Below are positions 3,823 to 60,386 of a stretch of 64,000 nucleotides of DNA, piece after piece. The notes below the pieces were generated by a model. It was not told the origin of the DNA and made no database searches. It saw only the letters and a program-made list of their open reading frames with translations. The first letter of the stretch is position 1; each line of letters starts with the position of its first letter. The translations under genes were made by a program, and so were the position numbers. This DNA is from a virus. Its lineage: Duplodnaviria; Heunggongvirae; Uroviricota; Caudoviricetes. Where the stretch lies: positions 3,450 to 67,449 of IMG/VR virus record IMGVR_UViG_2896028454_000001. The stretch is one strand, 5' to 3'.

Positions 3823-4689
3823 ATGACCGACGCCCCGCTCGGAAAGAGCCGGAGCACCGAAACGAAGTACGCCCGTATCCCGCTGTGGCTCTTCGAGACT
3901 GGTGTGTCCCTCCAGGCCCTTGCCACCTACGCCTGGTTGCACGGCAAGTACGGGCACTTTGACCTGGTCATCCCCTCCTACAGGACACTCGCGAAGCAGC
4001 TCAAAGTCTCTCGCAGTTCGGTCATCGCCTACGTCAACGAGTTGCGCAATGTCGGCGCGATCGTCGCGATCGAGCGGTACAGCAACGGTGAGCGCACCAC
4101 GAACGAGTACGTCATCGCGTTCAACGAGCCGTTCACGGTGGTCAGCATTCCGACCACCTCTGACCAGGGTGGACCTGACGAAGGTGGTCAGGATATTGAT
4201 CAGGGGGGTCAGCCCGCTGACCCGGGTGGTCAGAATGCTGACCCGGGGTGGTCAGCCGGTTGTACTGCGGAAGAAGACGTAGTTGAAGAAGACGTAGTTA
4301 AGAAGACACCCAACAACCCGGCGTTGCCGGGTATGCCCCCCGACCCCGTCGAGCCTCCGAAGCCCGGCAGCGACGACGACCCCCAATGGGTGAAGTTCTG
4401 GGCCGCCTACCCCAACAAGGTCTCCAAGAAGCGAGCCCGCGCCTCGTTCGCCCAAGCGCTGAAGAAGGTCACCTTCGATGACCTCATGGTCGGCCTCCAC
4501 CGATACCTCACCGAGGACTACCGCCCTCTAGGCGGCTACGTGAAAGATCCTGCGGCGTGGCTGAACGGCGAGTGCTGGGCGGATGAGCCCCAACCTCCTC
4601 GCGGCGCCCCAAAGGCCGCTGGCGGCCCCTCCGCGGCTGTCCCCACTCACGACGACTGGAACACCGGAAAGGCCCAGGTCCAACTCTGA
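3823..4689 (+). CDS. Replication initiator-like protein with N-terminal winged-HTH; contains internal iterons
   Basis: N-terminal wHTH-like region (LAKQLKVSRSSVIAYVNELRNVGAIVAIER). Low-complexity linker encoded by the repeat DNA. Position directly upstream of the loader and helicase genes. Confidence 0.55.
   Translation: MTDAPLGKSRSTETKYARIPLWLFETGVSLQALATYAWLHGKYGHFDLVIPSYRTLAKQLKVSRSSVIAYVNELRNVGAIVAIERYSNGERTTNEYVIAFNEPFTVVSIPTTSDQGGPDEGGQDIDQGGQPADPGGQNADPGWSAGCTAEEDVVEEDVVKKTPNNPALPGMPPDPVEPPKPGSDDDPQWVKFWAAYPNKVSKKRARASFAQALKKVTFDDLMVGLHRYLTEDYRPLGGYVKDPAAWLNGECWADEPQPPRGAPKAAGGPSAAVPTHDDWNTGKAQVQL
4160..4256. repeat. Iteron cluster. At least 7 copies of GGTCAG/CTGACC (mostly as GGTGGTCAG) in about 100 bp inside the initiator gene
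   Basis: Read directly: GGTGGTCAG at about 4183, 4225, 4247; GGGGGTCAG at 4204; CTGACC at 4160, 4217, 4238. Confidence 0.5.
4273..4308. repeat. AT-richer tandem direct repeat GAAGAAGACGTAGTT x2 plus a partial copy (candidate DNA-unwinding element)
   Basis: Exact 15-bp tandem duplicate followed by AAGAAGAC, immediately 3' of the iterons. This is the lowest-GC stretch in the gene. Confidence 0.4.
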
Positions 4690-10744: not shown

Positions 10745-11262
10745 TGCCCGTGGACACCGCCGCTGAGGCCCGCATGGTGGTCGCCGGGCGGGTCGCGGAC
10801 CCCACCACCCAGGAGGTCACCCCCGCAGAGCTGGAAGCCCTCCGCCCCCTCCTTGACGCCCTGGATCTGCTCCCCCGCCCCGAGACCCCGGACGAAGCCG
10901 AAGCCGAATCCGGGCCCGACACCACTAACCCGGTCAAGGAACCGATCGCCAACCCGGCCAAGGAACCGGCCGCCGTCCGGGACGAGTGCGGAACCCGCAA
11001 CGGCTACCAGCAGCATGTCCAGCTCGGCGAAGAAGCGTGTGAGGACTGCAAGGCAGCCAACCGGATCTACGCCTACGCCTGGTACCAGCGCAACAGGGCC
11101 AACCGCCGGGAGTTGGCCCCGTGCGGGACCGAAGCCGCGTACCAGCGGCACCGGCGGCGACGCGAGGAATGCCGGGAGTGCAAGGACGCGAACGCCCGGG
11201 CGGGCAGGGAGAAGCGGGCACGGCAGAGTGCCCGCCGAGCGCGCGACCGCGCCACCGCATGA
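10744..11262 (+). CDS. Protein with two copies of the G.GY..H...C..C..A..Y motif
   Basis: CGTRNGYQQHVQLGEEACEDCKAANRIYAYAWYQRNRANRR and CGTEAAYQRHRRRREECRECKDANARAGREKRARQ. Confidence 0.5.
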   Translation: MPVDTAAEARMVVAGRVADPTTQEVTPAELEALRPLLDALDLLPRPETPDEAEAESGPDTTNPVKEPIANPAKEPAAVRDECGTRNGYQQHVQLGEEACEDCKAANRIYAYAWYQRNRANRRELAPCGTEAAYQRHRRRREECRECKDANARAGREKRARQSARRARDRATA

Positions 11263-11312
11263 ACCCAGACCGCCCCACCCGAACCCACCCGCCTTTTGGA
11301 GAGGAGGCCCCC

Positions 11313-12107
11313 GTGCGCTTCTACCTCGGAACCCACCAACCCGACTGGCTTCACCACCTCAACCACCGGTGGTTCGAAGCCGACCAGGTCCCCCTGTTCG
11401 TGTCCCACCGCCGCCTCGCCGACCGCCGCACCCTGTTCCCCGCGAACGTCCCGTGGGCCCTCGACAGCGGCGGGTTCACCGAGCTGTCCATGTACGGCCG
11501 GTGGGTAACCACCCCCACGGACTACGCCCACCACGTCCGCCGGTACATGGACGAGATCGGCCGACTGGAGTGGGCCGCCCCGCAGGACTGGATGTGCGAG
11601 CCGGTGATGCTCGCCAAGACCGGCCTCACGGTCGCCCACCACCAGGCGCGCACCCTCGACAACCTGTTGGAGCTGCGCCACCTCGCCCCCGACCTGCCGT
11701 GGGTGCCCGTCCTCCAGGGGTGGGAGCCGGACGACTACCGGCGCCACGCCGACGCCTACCAGTCCGCTGGTGTCGACCTCACCACGGAACCCGTCGTCGG
11801 GTTGGGGTCGGTGTGCCGCCGCCAGTCCACCACCGCCGTGCACAGCCTGGTCGCTGAGCTGGCCGCTGCTGGGCTCCGGTTGCACGGGTTCGGGTTCAAA
11901 ACCCTTGGCCTCCGCAAGGTCGGGCATCTGCTCGCGTCCGCTGACAGCCTCGCTTGGTCGTTGAACGCCCGCCGTCGCCCCGCCATGGCCGAGTGCTTCG
12001 ACGCTCACGAGCACTGCGGGAACTGCCCCCGGTTCGCCACCCGGTGGCGCCGCCAGCTTCTCGACTCCCTCACCCCGCCCCCGGCCCCCTCCGCTTACGC
12101 GGCCTGA
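11313..12107 (+). CDS. tRNA-guanine transglycosylase superfamily protein, DpdA-like
   Basis: DSGGF catalytic-Asp motif (as in the TGT DSGGFQ). VPVLQGW, GLGSVCRR. C-terminal C-x5-H-x-HC-x2-C zinc-site-like motif (CFDAHEHCGNCP). Confidence 0.6.
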   Translation: MRFYLGTHQPDWLHHLNHRWFEADQVPLFVSHRRLADRRTLFPANVPWALDSGGFTELSMYGRWVTTPTDYAHHVRRYMDEIGRLEWAAPQDWMCEPVMLAKTGLTVAHHQARTLDNLLELRHLAPDLPWVPVLQGWEPDDYRRHADAYQSAGVDLTTEPVVGLGSVCRRQSTTAVHSLVAELAAAGLRLHGFGFKTLGLRKVGHLLASADSLAWSLNARRRPAMAECFDAHEHCGNCPRFATRWRRQLLDSLTPPPAPSAYAA

Positions 12108-23128: not shown

Positions 23129-24442
23129 GTGATCACCATCAAGGACCTCTTCGCCGGTGGCGGCGGCACCACCACAGGCGCCCGCAAGGTGCCTGGCGTC
23201 AAGGTCAGCATGGCCGTCAACCACTGGCCGCTGGCCGTCGACACCCACAACCTGAACCACCCCGACACCGGCCACGACTGCGTCGACATCTCCCAAGTCG
23301 ACCCCCGCCGGTACCCGACCACGGACATCCTGTGTGCGTCTCCGGAGTGCACGCAGCAGACCAGGGCGCAGGGCGTGGCCCGCACCGCCCGGCAGGCGTT
23401 CGACCTGTTCAGCACCGACGAGATGGACGCCGCTGAACGCTCCCGCGCCACCATGTGGGACGTACTGCGGTTCACGGAGGTGCACGCCTACCGGTACATC
23501 ATCGTGGAGAACGTCATCGACGTCCGAGGCTGGGCGATGTGGCCCGCGTGGGCGCTGGGCCTGGGCTGTCTCGGCTACGAGTTCCGGTACATCAGCCTCA
23601 ACAGCATGTTCGCTGGGGCTTTCGGCGCCCCGGCAGCCCAGTCCCGCAACCGGGGTTACGTCGTCGCGTGGAAGAAGGGCGAGCGCGCCCCGGATTTCAA
23701 CGCGTGGCTGCGCCCCTACGCGGACTGCCCCGTTCACAAGCGTGTGCAGGCCATCCAGGCGTTCAAGAACGGTCGCGAGTACGGCGAGTACGGGCCCCAG
23801 TACATCTGGCGGTGCCCCCGCGTGGAGTGCCGTAACACCCAGGTCCACCCGAAGGTGCGCCCGGCCGCCGACATCATCGACTGGTCCATCCCCACCCCAC
23901 GCATCGGCGACCGCACCACCCCGCTCGTGGAGAACACCATGCGCCGGGTCCGGGACGGGGTCGCCACCTACGGCCGCCCGGCCGAGGACGGCACCCACCT
24001 GCCGCCGTTCATGACCGAACTCCGGGGCGGCGGGTCCAAGCACCGGCCCATGGCGTCCCCGCTGTCCACCGTCACCGCTGGCGGCAACCACCACGCCATC
24101 ACCGTCCCCGACATGATCTACCCGTACTACGGCAACTCGGCTCTCCAGCCCGCCGCCCGGCCGCTGCCCACGGTCACGACGGTGGACACCTGCGCGCTCC
24201 TGCAAGGCGGGGTCATCCGCGACATCAACGACCTGCGGTACCGGATGCTCAAACCGCACGAGTACGCCGCCGCCCAGGAGTTCCCGGCGGACTACCGGTG
24301 GCCGGTTACGTCGAGCAAGAAGCTCGTCCGGATGATCGGGAACGCGGTGTCCACGAACGCGGCCCGTGACCTGGTGGGCATGGTCGCCGCCCAGATGGAC
24401 CCGAGCATCGTTCCGACGTGGGGGATGGGGTTGGCCGCATGA
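23129..24442 (+). CDS. DNA (cytosine-5)-methyltransferase
   Basis: FAGGGG motif I, SPEC (PC motif), IVENV motif VI, target-recognition domain region, C-terminal motifs. Confidence 0.85.
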   Translation: MITIKDLFAGGGGTTTGARKVPGVKVSMAVNHWPLAVDTHNLNHPDTGHDCVDISQVDPRRYPTTDILCASPECTQQTRAQGVARTARQAFDLFSTDEMDAAERSRATMWDVLRFTEVHAYRYIIVENVIDVRGWAMWPAWALGLGCLGYEFRYISLNSMFAGAFGAPAAQSRNRGYVVAWKKGERAPDFNAWLRPYADCPVHKRVQAIQAFKNGREYGEYGPQYIWRCPRVECRNTQVHPKVRPAADIIDWSIPTPRIGDRTTPLVENTMRRVRDGVATYGRPAEDGTHLPPFMTELRGGGSKHRPMASPLSTVTAGGNHHAITVPDMIYPYYGNSALQPAARPLPTVTTVDTCALLQGGVIRDINDLRYRMLKPHEYAAAQEFPADYRWPVTSSKKLVRMIGNAVSTNAARDLVGMVAAQMDPSIVPTWGMGLAA

Positions 24443-25085: not shown

Positions 25086-25660
25086 CGAAGCTCGTGTTCG
25101 TCGACACCGAGACGACCGGTCTGAACCCTCGCGTTCACCACCCGTGGGAGGTGGCCGTGATCGTGGAAACCCCCGGGGAGGAGCTGGTGGAGAAGCGGTG
25201 GTTCCTGCCCGTGGACCTCACCCACGCTGACCCGAAGGCGTTGGAGATCGGCGGGTTCTGGGACCGGTACCCGCAGGGCACCGGGATCGTCAAGGGGCGC
25301 CTGGGGGAGCCGCGTGTGGTCGCCTGCACGTTGGCCCGCATCCTCGCCGGGGCGGTCGTGGTCGGCTCCAACCCCGCCTTCGACCAGGCGATGCTGACCC
25401 CGCTGTTGGCCGCGCACGGGCAGGTGTGGGCCGCCCACTATCGGATGGTCGACGTGATCACCCTCGGGGCCGGGGCCATGTACGCCGACGACGCTTTCCC
25501 TGTGATCCCCGGTGACCCGCACGCTCTCCCGTTCTCCACGACCCGGATCAGTGAGGTGTTCGGGATCAATCCCGACGACTACGACCGGCACACCGCGTTG
25601 GGTGACTGCTACTGGTCAAAGGCACTGTTTGAAGCGATCACGAAGAGGGGCGCCGAGTGA
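25082..25660 (+). CDS. DnaQ-like 3'-5' exonuclease (second copy)
   Basis: FVDTETTGL exo I motif. DEDD-like spacing. Confidence 0.7.
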   Translation: MTKLVFVDTETTGLNPRVHHPWEVAVIVETPGEELVEKRWFLPVDLTHADPKALEIGGFWDRYPQGTGIVKGRLGEPRVVACTLARILAGAVVVGSNPAFDQAMLTPLLAAHGQVWAAHYRMVDVITLGAGAMYADDAFPVIPGDPHALPFSTTRISEVFGINPDDYDRHTALGDCYWSKALFEAITKRGAE

Positions 25661-26208
25661 AGGACGATGGGCGGTTCAGGGAAAGCTGGAAGACTTCGAA
25701 CAATGGGTGCTGGGAATGGTGCGGAAGGCTGAGCGATAAAGGGTACGGGTGGTTCTGGGACTCGGCTAACAAGAAGCATGTAAAGGCACACCGGTGGAGC
25801 TATGAGTCATCCGTGGCCGCTATCCCCGAGGGTCTTGAAATCGACCACCTGTGCCGTAACCGTGCGTGTGTGAACCCTGGGCACCTCGAACCCGTGACCC
25901 ACGCCGAAAACGTGCGCCGCGCCAAGTACCTGAAGACAGAATGCGTTGCTGGCCACCCTCTTCCTGTTGTGGAGTCGGGAAGCCGAGAGTGCCAGGAATG
26001 TGCTCGTGAGCGAAAGCGCGCGTACAAGGCCCGCCAAAAAGCGAAGCAGCCCCCCAAGGAGAAGAAGCTCCCTCCCCACGGGCGAGGCAGATATGCCCAC
26101 CACGGTTGTCGGTGCGACATCTGTTGCGAGGCGGAGAAGTCCTACAAGCGAGCTTGGCGGGAAAAGCAAGCCGTCGCCATCACCCGAACGGAGACCACCG
26201 GTGCCTGA
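25657..26208 (+). CDS. HNH endonuclease with a C-terminal HGCRC motif
   Basis: HVKAHRWSYE...GLEIDHLCRNRACVNPGHLEPVTHAEN is the HNH core. C-terminal HHGCRCDICCEAEKSYKRAWREKQ matches the recurrent Cys motif. Confidence 0.7.
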   Translation: MKDDGRFRESWKTSNNGCWEWCGRLSDKGYGWFWDSANKKHVKAHRWSYESSVAAIPEGLEIDHLCRNRACVNPGHLEPVTHAENVRRAKYLKTECVAGHPLPVVESGSRECQECARERKRAYKARQKAKQPPKEKKLPPHGRGRYAHHGCRCDICCEAEKSYKRAWREKQAVAITRTETTGA

Positions 26209-28546: not shown

Positions 28547-29033
28547 CCGTCTGTGCCCGACCCACCCTGACAGCTACCGGGTGGGTGGGATGTGCCCGCT
28601 GTGCCCGATCCCGTACACCCCCACCACTCTGGCCGCTGAGCCTGCCGTGTGCCGGTCGCCCCGGTGCCCCCGGCCGGGGGTCAACAGCGCCGGGTACTGC
28701 TGTGCCGGGTGTGCCCGCTCGGATCGGTTCGGCGGGAGCCGGTTGCACGGGGTCCGGTGCGAGGAGGCCAACCCCGGGGTGGAGGAGACCACCGGCCGGT
28801 CCCTCCGCGACCGTGCCGTGGCCGCCGCCCTCACCATCCCCATCCGCCTCGGACCCGCCACCATCCGCAACGCCCAGGCCGGGCACACCACCACCCGCCT
28901 GTCCGGTGGGGAAGCTGACGATGTTGTTGCCGCGGTGGCAGAGGTCTTCCTCCAAGCGGTCGCGGACGAGCCCGGCATCCCCGACTACGCCCACGAGGCT
29001 CTGGCGCGGGCGCTGCGAGGAGATGACGACTGA
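28539..29033 (+). CDS. Cys-rich hypothetical protein
   Basis: CPTHPDSYRVGGMCPLCP...CRSPRCPRPG...GYCCAGCARS. Confidence 0.45.
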   Translation: MSDRLCPTHPDSYRVGGMCPLCPIPYTPTTLAAEPAVCRSPRCPRPGVNSAGYCCAGCARSDRFGGSRLHGVRCEEANPGVEETTGRSLRDRAVAAALTIPIRLGPATIRNAQAGHTTTRLSGGEADDVVAAVAEVFLQAVADEPGIPDYAHEALARALRGDDD

Positions 29034-30250
29034 TGGACCTGCGAGACCGGATCGCCGAGCAGGACCAGGAGATCAAAGCCCAGGCCGCCCGCATCCGCGC
29101 GTTGGAGGCTGAGCTGGCCATCGCCCAGGCCGCCGGGGCCGACCCCGACGACACCCTGTTGACCGGTATCGGTGGTGGCCCGGGGGAGACCACGGTCCAT
29201 CTCCGCCCTCCGGAGAAGCTGATGCGCGCCATCATCGCGTCCCTGATCGCCAAGCTCGACAGCGCACCCAACTACGTGGAGATCGAAGCCGCCCACCCCG
29301 CCTATCCGGGCCGGTACACGGTGACGGTCCAACGCGCGGAAGGGAAGTCCCCCCACACTCTCCGCATGGAAGCCGAGGAACGGGCCCGTACTGCCCGGGA
29401 GGACGGCCGCCGGGAAGGCATGGCTGAACTCGTCGCGCACCTGGAGGACGTGGCCGCCGAAGCCCGCACCGGCCGGGACGCCGGATACCCCGAAGAAGCA
29501 GCGGGGATGGGCCCCACCCGGTGGTGTCTGGTCACGGACCGGTCCCACCAGCTCGCCCGCAGGTACGCGGACGGGAAGGGGGTCTCGGTGCCGGACGCGA
29601 CCGCCCGCGCCCAAGAGGTGGAGGCGGAGCTACGCCGGGAGCAGGGCCGCCATGCCTCCGAAGTGCTCGGCCTGAAAGCTCAGATGGCCGGGCACCTGAT
29701 CGCCGCCCGCGAAGAGCAGACCGAACTCCTGGCCGCCGCCCGCCGCCGGGAACTCGCCCTCGTGGACAGGTTGCGCCGCCGCGGCGAACACCTCCACACC
29801 CTGAAGGCCAACACCCGGGAAGCCGAGCCCGCACCGGCCGCCCCTGCCGCCACCGACGCGAAGGAAAGGACCATGCAGACCCCCGCCGACCCCGAGCTTT
29901 ACATCGACACCATCGCCGACACCCTCAGGAAGGCAGGCGCCGCCATCGCTGACTGCTGGGCACAGAAGGACGCCGCTCTCAACGACGACGGCGACCTGAT
30001 GTGGGAAGGGTTCATCGGTTTCAAGTTCGACGCTGACGACCCCGACGAACACCCGGACGAGGTGGGGTTCGCGTGGAATCAGCGTGACGGGTGGCAGCAC
30101 CTGACCGGGCCGCGCACGGACTTCGGCCCGTTCAACAACATCCGCGACATGGGCTTGGCCGTGGACGCCCCCGTGAATGAGGTGGTGTCCGCCATCCTCA
30201 CCGCGCTCGGTGTGGACGACCCGGCCGGAACCGTACCCCTCCTCCTCTGA
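29033..30250 (+). CDS. Hypothetical coiled-coil protein (405 aa)
   Basis: N-terminal heptad-like IAEQDQEIKAQAARIRALEAELAIAQAA. Confidence 0.55.
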   Translation: MDLRDRIAEQDQEIKAQAARIRALEAELAIAQAAGADPDDTLLTGIGGGPGETTVHLRPPEKLMRAIIASLIAKLDSAPNYVEIEAAHPAYPGRYTVTVQRAEGKSPHTLRMEAEERARTAREDGRREGMAELVAHLEDVAAEARTGRDAGYPEEAAGMGPTRWCLVTDRSHQLARRYADGKGVSVPDATARAQEVEAELRREQGRHASEVLGLKAQMAGHLIAAREEQTELLAAARRRELALVDRLRRRGEHLHTLKANTREAEPAPAAPAATDAKERTMQTPADPELYIDTIADTLRKAGAAIADCWAQKDAALNDDGDLMWEGFIGFKFDADDPDEHPDEVGFAWNQRDGWQHLTGPRTDFGPFNNIRDMGLAVDAPVNEVVSAILTALGVDDPAGTVPLLL

Positions 30251-30295
30251 CGCCTTCGCCTGGGGTGCTTGGTTGGCGCCCCGGGCTCACCACAA

Positions 30296-30967
30296 TCACA
30301 AGTAAGTGATAGGACCATGCGGCCAAGGAACCGTCGCGAGCGGGTTGCGGCGTTCCCGCACCCACCGGCCCTGGGTGCGTACCAGCCTGTACCGCCACCA
30401 CCCTTCGCCTTCTCGTCGCCTTGGACGCAAGCTCCGCCAGTACCAACGCCAGTGCTGGTGCTCCCGGTACCTGCGCAAGCTGATCCGCTCACCGTGTTCA
30501 CGTAGAGGTCGCAGCGTTGTCCACACCACTTCCAGGTACGGTTCCTCCTTTTGTTCCTCCAACGACGGCACCTGGCAGTTGATCTCCAACGGATCGCCCC
30601 CTGGCATCATCATCGACTGGGTGACGCTTCGGATTCCTTCCGGTGCTTCTACGTGGTACACCCCGACCGGGCGTAGCCGAACATCACGAGCCGGGATGTC
30701 TCCTTCGCAGAACACCTTGATCGTCATGCCGTAGGGGTCTTTCTCGTGGTCTACCTTCTGGGCTCTTCCACCCTTGGGTGGCGTGCTCCACCGGTCCCGG
30801 CTGATGCTGAACCGCCAGGTGTGCCCTGGTCGGTCTAACCACTCCCACCGGGCGACGGTGACGGCTGCGACTGCCGCGATGGCGGAGAAGACCAGCGCGC
30901 TGATGTTGACGGTGTCCATGCCCACGAACGTAGTGGCGGGGGTGGACATTCGGGCGGGATCGGGCAT
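30296..30967 (-). CDS. Membrane-anchored hypothetical protein encoded in a low-GC island (insert of apparent foreign origin)
   Basis: Only sizeable minus-strand ORF in a region of about 55-58% GC. N-terminal TM ISALVFSAIAAVAAVTVA. True start and extent uncertain. Confidence 0.4.
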   Translation of the reverse strand: MPDPARMSTPATTFVGMDTVNISALVFSAIAAVAAVTVARWEWLDRPGHTWRFSISRDRWSTPPKGGRAQKVDHEKDPYGMTIKVFCEGDIPARDVRLRPVGVYHVEAPEGIRSVTQSMMMPGGDPLEINCQVPSLEEQKEEPYLEVVWTTLRPLREHGERISLRRYREHQHWRWYWRSLRPRRREGEGWWRYRLVRTQGRWVRERRNPLATVPWPHGPITYL

Positions 30968-31201
30968 CTGGTTGCGCCTGGGGCGGGCACGCTAACCGGG
31001 AAACATGGTGTGACCTGCGAAAAGGGTCAACCTGTCCAGGTCGGGTGGAACAATCGAACGCATGAGCGAAACACCCCCTGGGAACAGCCGGATCACACCC
31101 GGCCCACCCCCCACACGGGTACCCCACCGGTCGGGTTCTGTGGACCGTGCTGCCCGTGTTCACCGCGTCCGCGATCATGCACCCCAACCGGGGGTGTGAC
31201 C

Positions 31202-31363
31202 ATGGCCCCCACCACGGACCGGCGAGACCTCATCGCCACCAACATCACCACGTTCGGGATCGGCCTCACCATCGCGGCGATCTTCATGCAGGCGTGGCCT
31301 TCGTTCCTGCTGGCCCTCTTCTTCTTCGCCGTGGCGACCGTCGTGCACTGGCGAGGCCGCTGA
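31202..31363 (+). CDS. Small 2-TM membrane protein
   Basis: MAPTTDRRDLIATNITTFGIGLTIAAIFMQAWPSFLLALFFFAVATVVHW. Confidence 0.3.
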   Translation: MAPTTDRRDLIATNITTFGIGLTIAAIFMQAWPSFLLALFFFAVATVVHWRGR

Positions 31364-31620
31364 TGGGTCTGCTCATCCTCACCGTCCTGGCCCTGGCCGG
31401 GGTTGTTGTCGGGCTCGCGGTGTGGGGCCACCACACCAGCCGCACCCGCGACCGCGCGAAGCTCCGCGACCTCAAAGCCGGTGACATCGAACGCCGCGCC
31501 GCCCTCCGCCTCCTCGCGACCATCCGCAACCACGCCTCCACCGCCGACCAGGCCGGCAACCCCCTCGGCGGGGAGATCACCCACCTCATCGACGCGTTCC
31601 ACCGCGACCCCTCCCACTAG
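31363..31620 (+). CDS. Small membrane protein (N-terminal TM)
   Basis: MGLLILTVLALAGVVVGLAVWG... Confidence 0.4.
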   Translation: MGLLILTVLALAGVVVGLAVWGHHTSRTRDRAKLRDLKAGDIERRAALRLLATIRNHASTADQAGNPLGGEITHLIDAFHRDPSH

Positions 31621-31634
31621 GAAGACCACCCCTG

Positions 31635-32519
31635 ATGACCGTTCGCCGCACCACCACCATCGTTGCTGCCGTTGCTCTCGCGCTCGGCCTCACCGCGTGC
31701 ACCACCAGCGTCGAACCCGACGAACTCGGCATCGAGTATGACGCCGGTCTGTTCTCCTCCACCACGTTCGACGGGTGCGTGAACTCCGGGACCCGCGTCT
31801 ACTACGGGCCGGGCGACGACGTCGTGAAGTACCCCGGCGGGCAGCGCACGTTCGCGTTCAACAACTCGGAGGACAACCCCGGGGAGATGGGCGCGGAGAC
31901 CGTCGTCACCCAGGACGGCATGGAGATGACCGTGTCCGGGGTCGCGACGTTCCAGCTGAACCCGGACTGTGGCACCCTCCAGCAGTTCCACGAGGCGATC
32001 GGCCGCAAGTACGACGCCCACAAGACGGAGGGGTGGGAGCGGATGCTGAAGGCTTACGTCGGTGAGCCGCTGAGGCGGGCCCTGGACGACGCCTCCACCG
32101 AGTTCGAGTGGCGGGACCTGTACACCTCGGACGAGGCCAAGGCGGAGTGGGAGACCCGTGTTGGGGAGCTGCTGAAGGTCTACGTCGCGGAGATGGGAGG
32201 CGGCGACTTCTTCATCGGCGCCACGTACACCGGCGGGGAGGACGAGGACCCGGGGTCGCCGACCCTCACCCTTCAGCGGCCGGTCCCGCCCGGCAACGTG
32301 CGCGAGGCGATGACGGAGGCGCACCGGATCGCGCAGGAGATCGAGAACACCGAGTCGGCGGCGGAGCTGGCGGAGAAGGAGGCGGAGGCGATCGCTCCGC
32401 TGGTGGATCTGCTCGGCGCGGACGCTTACGTGCTGTGGGAGGCGATCAAGGCTGGTGACGTGGACGTGGTCGCGATCAGCCCGGGTGCGGGTGTGGGTGT
32501 GACCCCGGGGCGGGACTGA
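31635..32519 (+). CDS. Lipoprotein, possibly SPFH/band-7-like
   Basis: Signal peptide with lipobox LALGLTAC. Central region with SPFH-like composition. Confidence 0.45.
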   Translation: MTVRRTTTIVAAVALALGLTACTTSVEPDELGIEYDAGLFSSTTFDGCVNSGTRVYYGPGDDVVKYPGGQRTFAFNNSEDNPGEMGAETVVTQDGMEMTVSGVATFQLNPDCGTLQQFHEAIGRKYDAHKTEGWERMLKAYVGEPLRRALDDASTEFEWRDLYTSDEAKAEWETRVGELLKVYVAEMGGGDFFIGATYTGGEDEDPGSPTLTLQRPVPPGNVREAMTEAHRIAQEIENTESAAELAEKEAEAIAPLVDLLGADAYVLWEAIKAGDVDVVAISPGAGVGVTPGRD

Positions 32520-34261: not shown

Positions 34262-34971
34262 CCGTCACCCTGTACCCGTGCGGGCGCGGCCACCGCTGCG
34301 TCCAAGCCTCGATCGACCCCGACACCCGCGAACGCCACCCGGCCCGCACCCCGCACACGTTCTGCGACACCGACGCCGAGCACATCGCCCAGACCATCCG
34401 GGACCTACCCGTGGTGTACCGCGAACTCCGCGAGGTGTACGGCGACCAACCCCAGGGCGCCGCCGATGACGTGCGCGTGCACACCTCGAAGGTCGACCCG
34501 TCCATCCCTGTCCGTGAGGACCTGGACGCCCTGTTGACCGAGATCGAGACGACCGTGTTCGCCTACGAGGACCGTGTCCGCCAGGTCCTCGGCATGGGCC
34601 CGGCCCCCCGGGTGTCGTGGGCGCACCGGGCGGCCCGGGTTGAGCAGGCGTGCACCCTGTTGGCCGGACGGGTGGTGGTCCTCACCGACCTGCCCATGGA
34701 GTGGATGGCCATCGACGGGTCGCACGACGAACGCGGTGGTTTGGATGCCGGGCTGGACCTGCTCGATGTGCACCGGCGGGCGGACCGGGCCGGGGGGAAG
34801 CAACCGGCCCGGTATGTGGTGCCGGTGGTGTGCCCGGCCTGCCATCTCCCTGCGGGGGTGACCCGTGAGGCGGGGAAGGACGGGGCCACCTGTATGTGCG
34901 GGTACGTGATCGGTGAGGACGAGTACCGGAAGCTCACCGCTGAGCTGGCCGACGTGGCGAAGGCGGTGTGA
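34258..34971 (+). CDS. Hypothetical protein (237 aa)
   Basis: GTGA overlap. Cys cluster CPACH...CMCG. Confidence 0.5.
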   Translation: MTVTLYPCGRGHRCVQASIDPDTRERHPARTPHTFCDTDAEHIAQTIRDLPVVYRELREVYGDQPQGAADDVRVHTSKVDPSIPVREDLDALLTEIETTVFAYEDRVRQVLGMGPAPRVSWAHRAARVEQACTLLAGRVVVLTDLPMEWMAIDGSHDERGGLDAGLDLLDVHRRADRAGGKQPARYVVPVVCPACHLPAGVTREAGKDGATCMCGYVIGEDEYRKLTAELADVAKAV

Positions 34972-35447
34972 CAGTGGCCTGGTGCGGGGCGCGGGCGGTG
35001 TTCTGGCCGGAGGCGGAGGCGTGCGACGCCGTGTGTGGTTTGACGGTGCACGAGAGTACGGTCCACAGAGATCATGCGTTGGGCGAATGGGATGAGGCTG
35101 ATCTGGTGACCGTTCATGGGGAAGAGAGTGCGATGGATGATCTGGTGGTGTGGTTGCGCAGCGTCTTGGACGCTGACGGGAAGGCCGCAGGGGTGTTCCG
35201 CAGGGTGTCCTTGTGGACTGAAGCTGAAGCTGATGTTGACACTGATGAGGCCCGTGAGCGCTACCTGAAGATGGTGACTCCTGAACAGGCCCTTGCGGAT
35301 ATCGCAGCGAAGCGGGCCGTGCTCGACCTGTGGGACCTTGCCCGGCTCTCTCCTCACAGCGAGTCTTACGGGGCCCTCACTGAGGCTGTGCGTGCCATCG
35401 CGGGCGGGTACCGGCACCGGCCCGGATGGAATCCCGCGTGGGGGTGA
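34968..35447 (+). CDS. Hypothetical protein (159 aa)
   Basis: GTGA overlap. Confidence 0.5.
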   Translation: MTVAWCGARAVFWPEAEACDAVCGLTVHESTVHRDHALGEWDEADLVTVHGEESAMDDLVVWLRSVLDADGKAAGVFRRVSLWTEAEADVDTDEARERYLKMVTPEQALADIAAKRAVLDLWDLARLSPHSESYGALTEAVRAIAGGYRHRPGWNPAWG

Positions 35448-47870: not shown

Positions 47871-48389
47871 TCAGGCCCCTTGGGCTTCGGTCTGGTCCTG
47901 GAATGCCTCGACCTCCGCGCGGATCTGCTGGAGTTCCGCGATCCGCTCGTCGATCCGCTCGGGGGAGAGCTGGGTGCCTTCGTAGGTGAGGGGGTCCCAA
48001 CCGGTGACGATCAACCCGTCCTGTCCGAAATCTTCAGCGACGAGGTATCCAAGCTTCTGAAGCTCCGCACGCATGGCTTTCTGTGCGTCCCCGAAACAGC
48101 GGTAGCTCTTCGGGGACCACAAGGAGGTATCGGTTGCGTGGATGACGCCTCGAATGATCAGGCCGCCACGGGTGAGTTTCGCCTCCGTGATCTCCTGGTC
48201 GGTCTTGCGGTAGCCGTAGCCGACGTCGGCTGCTTCGAGCGCTGTGAGGCAGATGCTCTTCACCTCTTCGACGTCAGCGCGGGTGATTCGTACCTGACGT
48301 TCGCGTTGCGCCTGGGCAGCATCCACCTGGATGTGCCTGAAGTGGGCTTGCTGCTGAAGTTCTTCACGAGAAGGGCCGAACAGTCCCAT
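47871..48389 (-). CDS. Hypothetical protein (172 aa), minus strand
   Basis: Protein-like composition in a locally lower-GC stretch. Divergent from the Xis-like gene. Confidence 0.5.
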   Translation of the reverse strand: MGLFGPSREELQQQAHFRHIQVDAAQAQRERQVRITRADVEEVKSICLTALEAADVGYGYRKTDQEITEAKLTRGGLIIRGVIHATDTSLWSPKSYRCFGDAQKAMRAELQKLGYLVAEDFGQDGLIVTGWDPLTYEGTQLSPERIDERIAELQQIRAEVEAFQDQTEAQGA

Positions 48390-48490
48390 CCGTGTCTCCC
48401 GGAAAGTTGGGGTGGTTGATGGGGGTCACGGTAGTGACTGGCCGGTCGGTGCGGGGGCGGTTTCGTGGATTCGACCGCCAAACAATATGA

Positions 48491-48545
48491 TCGAACTCAC
48501 GTTCGACAATGCTCCGCTGATCATGTACCATGAGTGTCAGCGGAG
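48491..48545. promoter_or_regulatory. AT-rich divergent control region with palindromes TCGAACtcacGTTCGA and CTCCGCTGA-(TCATGTACCATGA)-TCAGCGGAG
   Basis: Read directly. Nested inverted repeats in the intergenic region between 47871..48389(-) and 48601..48858(+). Confidence 0.4.
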
Positions 48546-48600
48546 AAACTATGCCCTCAGCCACCAGGTTGGGGGCATTTGTCGTTTCGGGAGACCCCAG

Positions 48601-48858
48601 ATGCGCCCCGTACCCCTGACCAACGGCAACCTGATCAACGCCGACCAGGCCGCCCAGCTCCTCGGTAAGAGCGCGCGCACCGTCCGCGCCTACACCACCC
48701 GCGGCCTCCTGCTCGCCAACGGGGAACGCTGGTACCTGCCCGTCGCCGGGCTCGACCACCGGGGCGTGCAACTGTTCAACCTGGCCGACATCCGCACGGC
48801 CGCGCAGGCTGTCCAGGAGCGCGGCCGGTCCAACAAGCGGGTTCTGGTGGCCGCATGA
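48601..48858 (+). CDS. Excisionase/MerR-like HTH DNA-binding protein
   Basis: INADQAAQLLGKSARTVRAYTTRGLL is a Xis/MerR-type HTH. Confidence 0.45.
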   Translation: MRPVPLTNGNLINADQAAQLLGKSARTVRAYTTRGLLLANGERWYLPVAGLDHRGVQLFNLADIRTAAQAVQERGRSNKRVLVAA

Positions 48859-48930: not shown

Positions 48931-49021
48931 GGGAGTGCGCCGGAGATGGAGCGCCGGAGCTGGCTGTAACCCAGTGACCCCTTTCGCGGGTTAGGAGGTT
49001 CGAGTCCTCCCACTCCCACCA
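48931..49021 (+). tRNA. tRNA-Tyr (anticodon GTA), class II with long variable arm, encoded CCA
   Basis: Hand-folded. Acceptor GGGAGTG/CACTCCC. D-arm CCGG/CCGG with GG. Anticodon stem GCTGG/CCAGT. Loop CT-GTA-AC. T-arm GGAGG-TTCGAGT-CCTCC. About 91 nt. Coordinates +/- 1. Confidence 0.6.
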
Positions 49022-49042
49022 CCCCGCCCACACGCGGGGCCT

Positions 49043-49118
49043 ATGCGGGTAGCTCAACTGGTAGAGCAGCCGCCTCCAAAGCGGCCGGTTGCGGGTTCGA
49101 ACCCTGCCCCGTATGCCA
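49043..49118 (+). tRNA. tRNA-Trp (anticodon CCA), encoded CCA
   Basis: Hand-folded. Acceptor ATGCGGG/CCCGTAT (one G-U pair). D-arm GCTC-AACTGGTA-GAGC. Anticodon stem GCCGC/GCGGC. Loop CT-CCA-AA. T-arm GCGGG-TTCGAAC-CCTGC. 76 nt. Confidence 0.75.
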
Positions 49119-49777: not shown

Positions 49778-50293
49778 CTACTTGCGCAACACCTTCTCCA
49801 TGCGCGCTTTCCGTTCCGCGTGCTCGGCCTCGGTGATCTCACCGTCCGCCAACATACGATCCAGCTCGCCGAACGCGTCCTGCGCGGCCTGCGCGAGCTT
49901 ACCCCCCGGGGCGCCCACGGCCTTGTCCCGCCAGGTGCCCACCGGCCCCCCGCCCGGGTTGAGGACCGCCTGCTCCAACTCGCGGGCACCGGATATCACC
50001 TTGAACGTCCGGTCGCCCCCAGCGGTGTGAAGGGTGATCTTCCCGCGCCCGCGGTCAACCCCAGCGACGGGCAACGCCACCGACGACGTCGAGGTGCGGC
50101 CGAACATGCCGGCGGACACGAACAGCAGGCGCCGGTTCGTGGCCACAGCGACACCGTTTTTCCCGTCTAGGTTGACGGCCCCGGCGGCGTTCACGGTCTC
50201 GTCCGCGCCCAGCTCGGTTTCAGCGGCGGCCAACGCCTTCTTCAGGAGAGCGAACCCGCCTACCCCTGTGGCCCGTTCGAGGTCTTCACGCAC
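49778..50293 (-). CDS. Bacterial PH-domain-like protein with a C-terminal SHOCT motif
   Basis: C-terminal LADGEITEAEHAERKARM matches the SHOCT pattern (L..G.I...E...K...L). Central beta-rich region. Confidence 0.45.
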   Translation of the reverse strand: MREDLERATGVGGFALLKKALAAAETELGADETVNAAGAVNLDGKNGVAVATNRRLLFVSAGMFGRTSTSSVALPVAGVDRGRGKITLHTAGGDRTFKVISGARELEQAVLNPGGGPVGTWRDKAVGAPGGKLAQAAQDAFGELDRMLADGEITEAEHAERKARMEKVLRK

Positions 50294-56735: not shown

Positions 56736-57227
56736 GTGGGCAAGCGAGGCCCCCGCGAGAAACCCACCTCCCTCAAGCTCCTCGACGGCACCCGCCGCGA
56801 CCGGATCAACACCGACGAACCCCTCCCCGGGCAGGGCACCATCGCCCCGCCCGGGTGGCTGGTCGCTCTCCACAACCAGGCCGACCCCGCGTCCCCCTAC
56901 GAAACCGCCCTGGACGTGTGGAATCGGCTCGCCCCCGACCTCGAAGCGAAGATGGTCCTCACCCCATGGGATGTCGACACGTTCGCGGTGTGGTGCGACG
57001 CCGTTGTCCGCCACCGCGAAGCCGTTGACGAGATCACCCAGTACGGGGTCATGGTCGTCGGCCAGAAGGGCGAGCGGGTCAAAAACCCGGCCGTCCAGAT
57101 CGCCCGCGACTACGCGGAGACGATGACCCGCATCGGTGCCCGCTTCGGCCTCACCCCCTCGGACCGTGCCGGTCTGAAGATCGACCGGGAGGAGGTCAGG
57201 GGTGGAGCCGAACGATTCCTCTCCTGA
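56736..57227 (+). CDS. Terminase small subunit (P27-family-like)
   Basis: KGERVKNPAVQIARDYAETMTRIGARFGLTPSDRAGL is typical of the P27 small terminase family. Immediately upstream of the large terminase, with overlap. Confidence 0.7.
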   Translation: MGKRGPREKPTSLKLLDGTRRDRINTDEPLPGQGTIAPPGWLVALHNQADPASPYETALDVWNRLAPDLEAKMVLTPWDVDTFAVWCDAVVRHREAVDEITQYGVMVVGQKGERVKNPAVQIARDYAETMTRIGARFGLTPSDRAGLKIDREEVRGGAERFLS

Positions 57228-58914
57228 CCTGCCCGCGTGCTCCTGGACCCATGACGGCCTGACCTGCCCCGAGCAGGGCAACCACTTCTGTACCCCGCGC
57301 GCGAACCACGCCCAGGGGTTCATCGAAGAGGTCCTGGTGCACACCAAGGGCACCTACGCGCGCAAGCCGTTCATCCTCACCGACTGGCAGCGCGACGACA
57401 TCGTCCGGCCCTTGTTCGGGCAGGTTCGCTGGTCCGACGAGTACCAGGACTACGTCCGCCAGTACTCCACGGCGTGGATCGAACTGGCCCGCAAGAACGG
57501 CAAGTCCGAGATCCAGGCCGCGATCATGCTGTACCTGCTCGTGGCGGACGGTGAGGAAGAAGCCGAACTGTACGGGTGCGCCCGCGACCGCGACCAAGCC
57601 AGCCTGGTGTTCAACGTCGCCAAGCGCATGGTGCAGCTCTCACCGGTGCTGTCGCGCCGGTTGCAGGTCAAGGACGCCAACAAGCGCATCGTGGACCCGA
57701 AAACCGCGTCGTTCTACCAGGTGATCGCCGCCGACGCGGCCGGAGCCCTGGGCTACAACCCGCACGGGGTTGCGGCCGACGAGATCCTGGCGTGGCGCAA
57801 GCGGGACCTGTGGGACGCCATGGAGACCGGTATGGGTTCGGGGGCCCGCCGACAGCCGTTGATGATCGCGGCGACCACCGCAGGCAACGACCCGACCAGC
57901 TTCGCGGCGAACATGCACAACGAGATGCAGCGCATCTTCGACATGCCGGACCGGTCGGCGCACACGTTCGTGTACCTGCGCAACACCCCGGAGGACGCGG
58001 ACCCGTGGGATGAGGCGACGTGGAAGATCGCGAACCCCGCCCTGGGGGACTTCCTGTCGATCGAGAAGTTCCGGCAGGCCGCATCGGACGCACGGAACGC
58101 CCCGGAGAAGGAGAACGCGTTCCGCCAGTTCCGTCTCAACCAGTGGGTGCGCCAGTCCACCCGGTGGATGCCCATGCACCTGTACGGGGAGAATCCCGGC
58201 GAGGTGTGGTCCCACCCGGACCAGGCGCGCGAGGAGCTGGCGGGCCGGGAAGCCTACGGCGGCCTCGACCTGTCCGCGAAGTTCGACCTGACCGCGTGGT
58301 GTGTGCTCCTTCCCCCGGAGGAGAAGGGCGGCCCGGTCGATGTGCTGTGGCGGTTCTGGTTGCCCGAGGACGCCTTGCCGAAGCTCGACGAGGAGAACGA
58401 CGGCGCGTTCACCCGGTGGGCTGAACAGGGCTGGTTGACCATCACCGAAGGCAACATCATTGACTACGACCGGGTGTACGAGGACATCGGCGAGGACGGC
58501 GAACACTTCGCGTTCCGTGCCGCGCACGCCGATGAGTGGTCGATGTGGCCGGTCATCAACAAGGTCGCGGACCTTACCGGCCTGGACCCGGAAGAGGGCG
58601 AGATCGTCGCGTACAAGAACACCTACGACCGGATGACGCCGGGGTTGAACGAGGTCATGGCGTTGGTGAAGACCCGCCGGTTCGCGCACCACGGCAACCC
58701 GGTCGCGTCGTTCTGCTTCGACAGTGTCGAGGTGCGGCGCGCCCCGTACAACCCGGACCTGATCCGCCCGGACAAACCGGAGCGGGACAAGTCCGGGAAG
58801 CGCATCGACGGTGTTCCGGTGGCGGCGATGGCCGCGAACGCGATGGTCCTCAACGCCGACACCGGCGAGGGTTACCGGTCCGCTTACGAAGACCGCGGCC
58901 TCACCGTCGCCTAA
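57202..58914 (+). CDS. Terminase large subunit
   Basis: 570 aa. ATPase region then nuclease region with conserved acidic residues. Standard position before portal. Confidence 0.9.
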   Translation: MEPNDSSPDLPACSWTHDGLTCPEQGNHFCTPRANHAQGFIEEVLVHTKGTYARKPFILTDWQRDDIVRPLFGQVRWSDEYQDYVRQYSTAWIELARKNGKSEIQAAIMLYLLVADGEEEAELYGCARDRDQASLVFNVAKRMVQLSPVLSRRLQVKDANKRIVDPKTASFYQVIAADAAGALGYNPHGVAADEILAWRKRDLWDAMETGMGSGARRQPLMIAATTAGNDPTSFAANMHNEMQRIFDMPDRSAHTFVYLRNTPEDADPWDEATWKIANPALGDFLSIEKFRQAASDARNAPEKENAFRQFRLNQWVRQSTRWMPMHLYGENPGEVWSHPDQAREELAGREAYGGLDLSAKFDLTAWCVLLPPEEKGGPVDVLWRFWLPEDALPKLDEENDGAFTRWAEQGWLTITEGNIIDYDRVYEDIGEDGEHFAFRAAHADEWSMWPVINKVADLTGLDPEEGEIVAYKNTYDRMTPGLNEVMALVKTRRFAHHGNPVASFCFDSVEVRRAPYNPDLIRPDKPERDKSGKRIDGVPVAAMAANAMVLNADTGEGYRSAYEDRGLTVA

Positions 58915-59528
58915 TCCGCCGGTACGAGGATGGATCGGAGCATCGCACCGGCCGGGGTCAGAACGAACCGGTCGCCTTCCTGCGTGTACGCGAAGCCCTT
59001 CAACGCGGTGTCGGGCACCTGCTCGGCCGTGTCGTCCTGGAACGCGTCCAGCTCGGCACGGTGGGGGAGTACCGGCATCTGGTTGATGGGCATGTTCACC
59101 GGCCCGTCCTGCCACGCCCACACGCTCACCATCGGACGTAGCTCTTGGAGAGCGCCGGCCGCGTGGAGCACGTGTGCGTCCAAGCTGCCACCGTCGTTGG
59201 GCACGTTGATGGTGATCGGCCAACGCGGCGTGTGATCGTGCAGCAACCGCAGGAGCGCGCCCATTTGCCGCCATGGCCCGTTGGTGAACTCGGCCAGATC
59301 GAGCAACACCAGCGACCTCAGGTCGATGGTCGGGCCGAGGTGGGTGTCAGGAGTGATCTCGTGTAGGACCTGCTCGGGTTCCTCGCCTTTGTGTGCCAGG
59401 AACGTCTCCATGGCGGTGTCCTTGTCGGCTGCCCCGTTCACCCCAACCACAATTAGGGGTTCTGCGGGGGCCACGGCCACCATTGGGACGCCGGACTTTT
59501 CGTTCACCAGCATCACATGGACTGACAA
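58911..59528 (-). CDS. Hypothetical protein (205 aa), minus-strand insert
   Basis: Protein-like composition. Convergent with the terminase gene. Confidence 0.5.
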   Translation of the reverse strand: MSVHVMLVNEKSGVPMVAVAPAEPLIVVGVNGAADKDTAMETFLAHKGEEPEQVLHEITPDTHLGPTIDLRSLVLLDLAEFTNGPWRQMGALLRLLHDHTPRWPITINVPNDGGSLDAHVLHAAGALQELRPMVSVWAWQDGPVNMPINQMPVLPHRAELDAFQDDTAEQVPDTALKGFAYTQEGDRFVLTPAGAMLRSILVPAD

Positions 59529-59647
59529 CAGGGGCCTCCGCTCACAGGGGTTTCAGGGGGTTCCAGAGTCCTTCTCGGACAGTAGCGGACCCCACCAGCG
59601 CCCACCACCGGTTCGGCCAGTCCAGGCCGCTTTCTAGAACCGCGGGC

Positions 59648-60232
59648 TCACTGTCGCGTGACGAACCGGCCTTTGCCTCGCACGACCGTGACGAGCCCGG
59701 CCCCTTCCAACGCCGCGAAGGCGTGCCGGGCCGTCATCCGCGACACCCCGTACTCACGCTGAACATCCGCCTCGGACGGCAGCGCGTCATCCGGGGCCAG
59801 CTCCCCGCTGGTGATCCGCCTCCGTAGATCACGGGCGATCACCCGGAACGGTGCGCTCGCCTTCACCGGCAACTCCCCGCGCTCCTGGGCGGTGCACACC
59901 ACACGGCCCGAACCCGGGCGAGCCCGAACCCGGCGGTCCTTCTCCAACTCCGCCAGCGCCCGCCGAACGGTCGTGCGCGACACCCCGAACTCGGCCATCA
60001 ACGCCGACTCGGACGGGACCGGGGCCCCTGGGGTGAGCTGCCCCGACTCGATCCGGGCGGTCAGCTCCTTAGCGATCGCCCTGTAGGTGCCCCACTCCGC
60101 CCGCTGCCCCGACACGCTCATGCGCCCAACGTACCGGGCCAACCCAACCAGAGAAGGGGGGTGGCCCGCGTTGTTTGCCTGGCTCCGCCTGCTCCTCCGC
60201 CGTGAGGTCGTCGTGAACCTCCACGACGGCAC
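59648..60232 (-). CDS. Tandem GntR-type winged-HTH transcriptional regulator (no effector domain)
   Basis: Two copies of the GntR HTH signature: ALMAEFGVSRTTVRRALAELEKDRRV and ADVQREYGVSRMTARHAFAALEGAGLV. Confidence 0.6.
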   Translation of the reverse strand: MPSWRFTTTSRRRSRRSQANNAGHPPSLVGLARYVGRMSVSGQRAEWGTYRAIAKELTARIESGQLTPGAPVPSESALMAEFGVSRTTVRRALAELEKDRRVRARPGSGRVVCTAQERGELPVKASAPFRVIARDLRRRITSGELAPDDALPSEADVQREYGVSRMTARHAFAALEGAGLVTVVRGKGRFVTRQ

Positions 60233-60386
60233 GGGATTCCGCGGGGTCCTCTACCGCAAGGCCGGTGGCCTCGTGGAACTCCGCAACGCCGAACGCCTCG
60301 AACCCGGCCTGCCACCGGCCCAGTGTGACGGGGCGGTCGTCCTCGAACGGTCCCAGATCCTGTTCTGGCAGGTGGTGCCGTCGTGA
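60171..60386 (+). CDS. Small hypothetical protein upstream of portal (TTG start)
   Basis: AGAAGGGGGG RBS 8 nt upstream of the TTG. ATGA overlap with portal. Confidence 0.35.
   Translation: MFAWLRLLLRREVVVNLHDGTGFRGVLYRKAGGLVELRNAERLEPGLPPAQCDGAVVLERSQILFWQVVPS

Follow-up and report, generated by a model that had tools for sequence, protein, structure and literature searches.

The locus considered here raises a simple question: why should one gene be read leftward, and differ in composition, in a phage region whose genes are otherwise read rightward, and what might its product do? The window, by which we mean the whole 64,000-nt stretch of DNA analysed, has nearly all of its genes on the plus strand, and their products include DnaB, DpdA, a DNA methylase, the pol III beta clamp, a large terminase, a portal protein and a prohead protease. 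The reversed gene, termed gene X below, had been described as the sole long minus-strand ORF of its stretch, and indeed, from about 14.4 kb to 47.9 kb, where genes otherwise run on the plus strand, no credible minus-strand gene is seen apart from this ORF, whose longest form is 30296..30967.

The product of gene X is a 100% match to P0001, a hypothetical protein on a 253-kb contig of Nocardiopsis sp. FR26, and relatives of the window phage are found on large contigs of other Nocardiopsis isolate assemblies. Because the phage and its relatives sit on large contigs of bacterial isolate assemblies, we regard the window as most likely the prophage of a temperate phage belonging to a novel, highly mosaic Nocardiopsis group, in which some window genes are common only to the related contig L001 and others only to the related contig L020. 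No integrase was found in the 64-kb window. The phage appears to be only distantly related to known phages: the window portal protein is 44% identical to those of the nearest GenBank phages, which infect Arthrobacter, and GenBank phages gave no match to megablast with region 30260-31010 or to tblastn with X. Scans of IMG/VR with the X family and with the flanking protein, and of JGI metagenomes with the flanking protein, likewise returned no match. The features of the locus on which the argument depends are as follows, in window coordinates.

29033..30250, plus strand: upstream backbone gene of 405 aa, homologues of which mark the same position in L001, L020, L021 and L022.
30258..30286, plus strand: GC-rich terminator-like hairpin with a 12-bp stem, a 5-nt loop and no U tract.
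30287..31009, no strand assigned: putative inserted cassette of about 723 bp, comprising gene X and about 40-90 nt of 5' flank, absent at the equivalent L020 site.
30296..30919, minus strand: gene X coding sequence, 207 aa as in the NCBI annotation of P0001 (ORF list and 100% match).
30949 (217 aa) and 30967 (223 aa, the longest ORF, 30296..30967), minus strand: alternative starts of gene X (ORF list).
30356..30823, minus strand: predicted Ig-like beta-sandwich of X (residues 33-188).
30851..30910, minus strand: predicted transmembrane helix of X (residues ~4-23 of the 207-aa form; hydropathy and AlphaFold2).
31010..31078, plus strand: leader and start of the next rightward gene, CCTGCG...GTCGGGTGGAACAATCGAACGC ATG AGC GAA ACA CCC CC.
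31062..31199, plus strand: 45-codon ORF, its translation compared with those of L020 and L001.
31202..31363, plus strand: 53-aa ORF with two hydrophobic segments (GC3 0.93), outside the insert.
31363..31620, plus strand: 85-aa single-pass membrane protein whose start overlaps the preceding stop (TGATG), homologous to the 85-aa gene of L020.
31635..32519, plus strand: SPFH/Band-7 lipoprotein of 294 aa with lipobox LTAC (PF01145, 2.4e-9; phrog_200, 1.9e-23).

The compositional anomaly that first drew attention to this region is real, and it is milder and less singular than had been proposed. Region 30260-31010 has a GC content of 63.8% (63.2% in the minus-strand ORF) and falls to 60.0% in its lowest 300-nt window, so that the 55-58% initially given for it is too low; the window as a whole averages 69.3% (sd 2.5% for 700-nt windows). 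The region thus lies about 2 SD below the mean, and only 2.4% of 700-nt windows are as low. The deviation is clearer by codon than by plain GC: gene X has a GC3 of 0.745 against 0.889±0.033 in 72 confident genes (z = -4.3) and a CAI-like index of 0.48 against 0.73±0.06 (z = -3.9), the reference genes for both measures having been pre-selected for GC3 > 0.8. The dip is one of about six in the window, with five further patches equally low or lower at 3.8-4.6, 14.8-15.6, 25.4-26.3, 35.0-35.4 and 47.8-48.9 kb.

We also observe that GC dips in the window generally mark accessory or mobile genes. The patch at 25657-26208 (GC3 0.70) encodes an HNH_3 homing-endonuclease-like protein (4.4e-12), and other ORFs of low GC3 lie at 3823-4689 (HTH_36), 34968-35447 (DUF6221), 47871-48389 (minus strand, no match) and 48412-48858 (HTH_17-like).

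Long spurious ORFs are abundant in high-GC genomes, and neither a Shine-Dalgarno sequence nor, in a sigma-70-type scan, a promoter was recognised for gene X. It could be argued on these grounds that X is no more than a frame left open by chance in DNA of high GC content, and the GC dip a non-coding spacer. We rejected this reading, whose probability we consider negligible: conservation in the X family extends to members of about 26% identity, in which Trp, Gly and Pro residues are still invariant, its fold is predicted with high confidence, and the gene is under purifying selection, with a dN/dS of 0.09-0.25 (dS being near saturation) and a pN much lower than pS. Six close homologues are 37-100% identical to X. 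As to where the gene begins, family conservation starts at MDTV, which corresponds to the annotated start at 30919; the start at 30949 is also possible, because the preceding MSTPATTFVGM resembles the MSNPxxTFLIM of P0002 and P0003, the two closest homologues.

Whether this real gene was inserted is best addressed by comparison with related phages, which had been suggested as a check on the foreign origin of the region. L020 and other relatives were gathered by a search with the upstream 405-aa protein. L020 is colinear with 24.8-37.3 kb of the window at 70-85% nucleotide identity, SPFH cassette included, and is without X; its gene order runs from the upstream-gene homologue and hairpin to a small membrane gene, the 85-aa gene and the Band_7 gene. 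In L020 the upstream stop is followed by the hairpin (GCCCGGGGG-CTCAACAA-CCCCCGGGC), CCTGCG, 46 nt and the ATG GAC GAA ACA CCC that opens a 70-aa membrane protein. The corresponding hairpin of the window has its end at 30286, but the CCTGCG is met only at 31010, where it is followed by 48 nt and ATG AGC GAA ACA CCC. The putative insert that this alignment delimits, about 30287-31009, nearly coincides with the interval 30260-31010 singled out in the preliminary description. A tblastn search of L020, L021 and L022 with X gave no match (best E 0.8), whereas in L001 (N. codii) and L010 the gene occupies the site that it has in the window, is likewise reversed and is accompanied by equivalent hairpins; in the short contig L011, X is present and faces away from most of its neighbours.

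The sequences that border the cassette seem to belong to the phage rather than to the insert. The hairpin at 30258-30286 has a dG of -26.1 kcal/mol (z = -3.1) on the plus-strand transcript and is weaker on the minus strand, that of X; it is also present at the empty site of L020 and in L001 and L010, and can be taken as a backbone feature. A scan of the locus for the intrinsic-terminator consensus, which requires a T run, found none. Alignment shows the leader at 31010-31078 to be shared by the window with L001 and L010, and in part with L020; it is unique in the window, with no further copy of the block, and no Rfam family was matched between 29.9 and 31.8 kb. Visual inspection of the insert ends for a target duplication or for inverted repeats at the termini revealed nothing beyond a weak 6/10 match, and we claim no transposon-like structure for the cassette.

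Gene X shares its site in three mosaic relatives at an amino acid identity of only 57-74%, and for this reason the insertion, if it is one, would be old. The same observations could be read to mean that X is an old backbone gene, deleted in L020, L021 and L022, whose composition reflects an odd amino acid content and weak expression: site and orientation are identical in the window, L001 and L010, X is as diverged as the flanking backbone genes (44-77%), and in so mosaic a group the gain or loss of X is not polarised by phylogeny. The empty site of L020 is nevertheless clean, with the hairpin followed directly by the leader and the spacing almost unchanged (46 as against 48 nt), and GC3, as a property of synonymous sites, is not explained by amino acid content. 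The distribution of the family outside these phages also bears on the matter. X homologues are limited to mobile elements of Nocardiopsis, Streptomonospora, Streptomyces and Kitasatospora, among them phages, AICEs and linear plasmids, and beyond the phages they occur in the following contexts.

L002-L005: AICE-type elements with X, carrying an integrase, a TraA-like protein and a NUDIX protein.
L014: AICE-type element with X, carrying an integrase, Xis, Rep and FtsK/TraB.
L006-L009 and L019: integrative elements of another type with X, carrying HTH, AAA_25 and WYL genes.
Plasmids with X: the Streptomyces linear plasmid pFRL2, where X lies beside rep genes, and an S. globosus plasmid.
L013 and L015: small islands with X.

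An all-against-all comparison of neighbouring genes found X to be the sole gene common to the different element types, which led us to reject the idea of a conserved partner gene that travels with it. In all five other contexts tested the GC content of X is below that of its flanks (in L001, for example, 57.7 against 70.4%). Being the only gene shared between element types and of lower GC than what surrounds it, X moves as a single-gene unit among actinomycete mobile elements. That homologues occur in unrelated element types without shared neighbours, and that their GC3 is everywhere below that of the flanking DNA, makes an ancestral backbone gene improbable; the composition of X and the distribution of its family argue for gain instead. 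A scan of species-representative genomes returned four loci only. No enrichment beside recognised defence genes was detected, and the hints of such genes near X are loose: a WYL regulator in L006, a Cas6e-like gene in L010 and a restriction-modification gene 10 kb away in L013.

Morons are defined as extra DNA of deviant GC content with expression signals of its own, the prototype being gene 15 of HK97 (PMC3594210). In practice, X is extra DNA between genes that are adjacent in a related phage (L020), and its base composition differs from that of its surroundings (63.2 against 69.3% GC; GC3 0.745 against 0.889), from which we take the X cassette to be a phage moron by the practical definition. 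Like X, HK97 gene 15 is extra DNA between two backbone genes relative to a related phage, and is a single gene set apart from the surrounding operon (in the case of X, as its orientation suggests) with a small inner-membrane product; X differs in having an actinomycete host and in residing also on plasmids and AICEs. A moron also has a promoter and a terminator of its own, by which it can be expressed while the prophage is repressed; in the case of X the sigma-70 scan recognised no promoter, and the only hairpin at hand is that of the backbone, weaker on the strand of X. The empty site in the colinear L020, the lower GC content and the status of X as sole shared gene among mobile elements together bear out the suspicion of a foreign insert, and we hold with high confidence that X is a real gene and an inserted moron.

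What kind of protein this moron encodes can be described in some detail. A profile search of 1.84 billion cluster representatives recovered 39, 31 of them with E < 1e-10; most are about 190-240 aa long with the same layout, a few shorter matches cover part of the profile, and few further members came from another protein search, word-indexed, with the profile of the family. The membrane anchor that had been proposed for the N-terminus is seen as one hydrophobic helix both by Kyte-Doolittle hydropathy (up to 2.19 for residues 4-23) and in the AlphaFold2 model (helix 3-28). After it, at the predicted membrane interface, lies a W-x-W-x-D-R-P motif that is near-invariant among 33 sequences, and residues 33-188 are modelled as a beta-sandwich of twelve strands. 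The AlphaFold2 prediction, made from the 33-sequence alignment, has a pLDDT of 89.8 and a pTM of 0.78, and the five models agree, all with at least 85. X is basic, its pI being about 10, and contains 12 Trp residues and 14% Arg. Its invariant residues are P31, W133, W157, W159, G184 and W186, and further family motifs are E-I/V-x-W-x-x-x-R-P-x-R-x-x-G-x-R, W-R-W-x-W-R-S-L-R and R-T-x-G-x-W-V.

No named family accommodates this protein. Pfam, PHROG, PADLOC and NCBIfam models gave no significant match to X or to 33 family members, the only PADLOC-DB 2.0 results for the latter being two single matches at chance level (E = 0.035 and 0.043). A sequence-profile search of the PDB found no match, and comparison of the predicted fold returned only generic beta-sandwiches, with weak matches in BFVD and none that was informative. 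X is hence a very small, unnamed protein family missing from Pfam, PHROGs, NCBIfam and PADLOC.

The orientation of X in the membrane matters for any functional proposal. The mean number of Lys and Arg residues across the family is 0.13 in the N-terminal tail and 2.8 in the 15 residues that follow the helix, and the C-terminal domain carries a family-wide net charge of +8.9. By the positive-inside rule, a tail so poor in Lys/Arg and a C-terminal flank so rich in them predict an N-out/C-in insertion, and X probably has its sandwich on the cytoplasmic face. Ig-like sandwiches are commonly extracytoplasmic, and one member of the family has been automatically named 'Secreted protein' by UniRef; the hydrophobic N-terminus could accordingly be a signal or type II anchor that places the sandwich outside, where it would act at the surface, for instance by masking a receptor in the manner of Ltp- or Cor-type exclusion. 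We judge this quite unlikely. All 24 members with short N-tails have no positive charge before the helix, and a conserved Arg-containing motif and a strongly basic domain come after it. X lacks the marks of proteins secreted by Sec or Tat and of lipoproteins, with its positive charges behind the helix, no twin-arginine motif, no lipobox, no signal-peptidase (A-x-A) site and no Cys near the helix.

With the sandwich predicted to face the cytoplasm, we propose the following pathway. A single-gene cassette of about 720 bp lies, reversed, in the short spacer between the terminator hairpin of the backbone and the leader of the next rightward gene. Given its reverse orientation, X would be transcribed separately from its neighbours, and probably also from a resident lysogenic or integrated element. 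Its sandwich, hanging on the cytoplasmic face of the membrane, would interfere at that inner face with incoming foreign DNA or with the machinery for its entry or translocation, and the outcome would be superinfection or entry exclusion, or possibly a membrane-based abortive defence, with no partner gene needed. The rationale for a role in conflict is that excluding or aborting competitors is the sole interest common to phages, AICEs and linear plasmids that one membrane protein could serve. Our best overall explanation, to which we lend somewhat less than even credence, is an inserted moron encoding a membrane-tethered protein that is most likely a factor in conflict between elements; that X is specifically a stand-alone exclusion or defence factor in such conflicts, a plausible idea already raised in the preliminary description together with counter-defence, is put forward tentatively, from context and analogy.

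The main rival to exclusion holds that the basic domain, tethered to the membrane, binds DNA or lipid and serves maintenance or the modulation of the host. X would then still be a mobile moron, serving its own element or altering host physiology as an accessory membrane protein; it would be, for example, a tether of element DNA or of a host protein to the membrane, a modulator of the envelope or of division, or a kil-like or host-takeover factor. A basic domain rich in Trp and Arg and predicted to be cytoplasmic is compatible with the binding of nucleic acid or anionic lipid, X lies near replication genes in pFRL2 and in AICEs, and no defence-family signal was found for it with PADLOC. Yet the machineries of replication and transfer in phages, in AICEs and in linear plasmids are unrelated, so that a common maintenance role is less obvious than exclusion, and no conserved partner or target gene travels with X. 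We regard the accessory role as a serious though rather doubtful alternative.

Exclusion, the reading we prefer, has several precedents. In actinobacteriophages, Charlie provides a case of a single membrane protein, expressed from the prophage, that excludes DNA injection (PMC6426606), and P22 SieA is a further precedent for exclusion by a membrane protein (PMC10883804). Like these two, X would be a stand-alone membrane protein of a phage that appears to be temperate, without a partner gene; unlike that class, it has no detectable similarity to GenBank phage proteins by tblastn. [quoted passage not shown] Another parallel is Mpr (multicopy phage resistance) of M. smegmatis, a membrane-anchored protein (about 24 kDa) in which the C-terminal domain derives from phage and whose defence against D29 needs membrane localisation (PMC12596739). 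Mpr shares with X an actinobacterial host, a mass of about 24 kDa and an N-terminal anchor, and its C-terminal domain has homologues in temperate phages. In L006 and L009 a DUF4352 gene lies two genes away from X. X itself is not a DUF4352 protein, an assignment we rejected as none of the 33 members matched PF11611 and hhalign gave a probability of 0.3% against the DUF4352 protein of L006; this separates X from Mpr, as does the lack of a counterpart of the N-terminal nuclease region of Mpr.

Conjugative elements offer a second kind of comparison. Entry-exclusion proteins of the TraS and Eex types are small inner-membrane proteins, produced from a resident conjugative element, that block the entry of related DNA. 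They act against conjugation by type IV secretion, whereas translocation in the AICEs of actinomycetes relies on TraB proteins resembling FtsK; AICEs and conjugative-type plasmids are among the elements that carry X, and L014 has FtsK/TraB. One could go further and suppose that X is the first of a new family of exclusion or defence factors, each a single protein, that actinomycete phages, AICEs and linear plasmids have in common. A Trp/Arg-rich Ig-like domain, held at the cytoplasmic face of the membrane by a reverse signal-anchor, would catch foreign DNA on its way in, or the machinery that translocates it, and so protect against both phage injection and conjugative entry of the TraB type. 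We consider this extended proposal unlikely as it stands. X matches none of the known anti-phage defence families represented in PADLOC-DB 2.0.

If X does exclude or defend, it would be a compact, single-gene, membrane-based system from actinomycetes, antibiotic producers in which phage and plasmid biology limits strain engineering, and a rare case of one gene common to phages, integrative conjugative elements and linear plasmids. Function aside, the locus gives a clean, textbook example of a moron for which the empty site is defined, and X defines a small and well-modelled family that combines a transmembrane helix, the WxWxDRP motif and a Trp/Arg-rich beta-sandwich. What is new is this protein family, the kind of element, a moron, being already familiar. 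X is at present one of many uncharacterised accessory genes of phages, and its importance is therefore modest.

The genes downstream of the insert have a history of their own. Small membrane proteins and a lipoprotein had been noted at 31202..32519, and the membrane ORFs and the lipobox are confirmed, with the lipoprotein now recognised as a member of the SPFH/Band-7 group; the 85-aa protein at 31363..31620 had no significant Pfam match. The SPFH lipoprotein is 73% identical in amino acid sequence to the L020 copy (L020:10215-11099) and is absent from L001. Since it is present in L020, which is without X, and absent from L001, which has X, the SPFH cassette lies outside the X insert and varies independently of it. 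Distant SPFH homologues annotated as 'band-7-like membrane protein' occur in Corynebacterium, Rhodococcus and cluster L-like Mycobacterium phages. The ORF at 31062..31199 looks like a degraded copy of the gene for a 70-77-aa membrane protein in L020 and L001, with about 19 N-terminal residues conserved and a C-terminal 'LPVFTASAIMHPNRG' in another frame; the gene thus appears broken in the window, whether as the remnant of a frameshift or deletion or through an error of sequencing, and is followed by the 53-aa ORF with two helices (31202-31363), a different gene.

In L010, a phage-like Logan contig (SRR31646599), a Cas6e/CasE-like gene (PF08798, E = 9.6e-14) lies across the leader from X and is followed by a 126-aa zinc-ribbon/GerE-like ORF and a 305-aa ORF with a faint Csf1 match; this stretch (L010:1057-2950) may be a phage-borne type IV-like CRISPR module. 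The first codons of the Cas6e-like gene (MTEAPP) match those with which a small membrane gene, unrelated to it, begins at this position in both the window and L001, and the sharing of MTEAPP by unrelated genes suggests a recombination junction within these codons.

Other parts of the window also carry features of interest. A DpdA homologue at 11121-12107 (PF23859, 6e-85) suggests that the phage DNA is modified with a 7-deazaguanine derivative, and a DNA methylase is encoded at 23129-24442. Adjacent tRNA-Tyr (GTA) and tRNA-Trp (CCA) genes lie at 48931-49118, adjoining a low-GC region. A leftward ORF of 171 aa at 49778-50293 (minus strand), with weak matches to bPH_3 (bacterial PH) and SHOCT, is possibly a membrane-associated accessory gene. 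Finally, two leftward genes at 58911-60232 (minus strand), a 205-aa ORF without a Pfam match and a GntR-family regulator (PF00392, 3.5e-39), form another reversed insert, unusually placed between the large terminase (57202-58914) and portal (60383-62380) genes.
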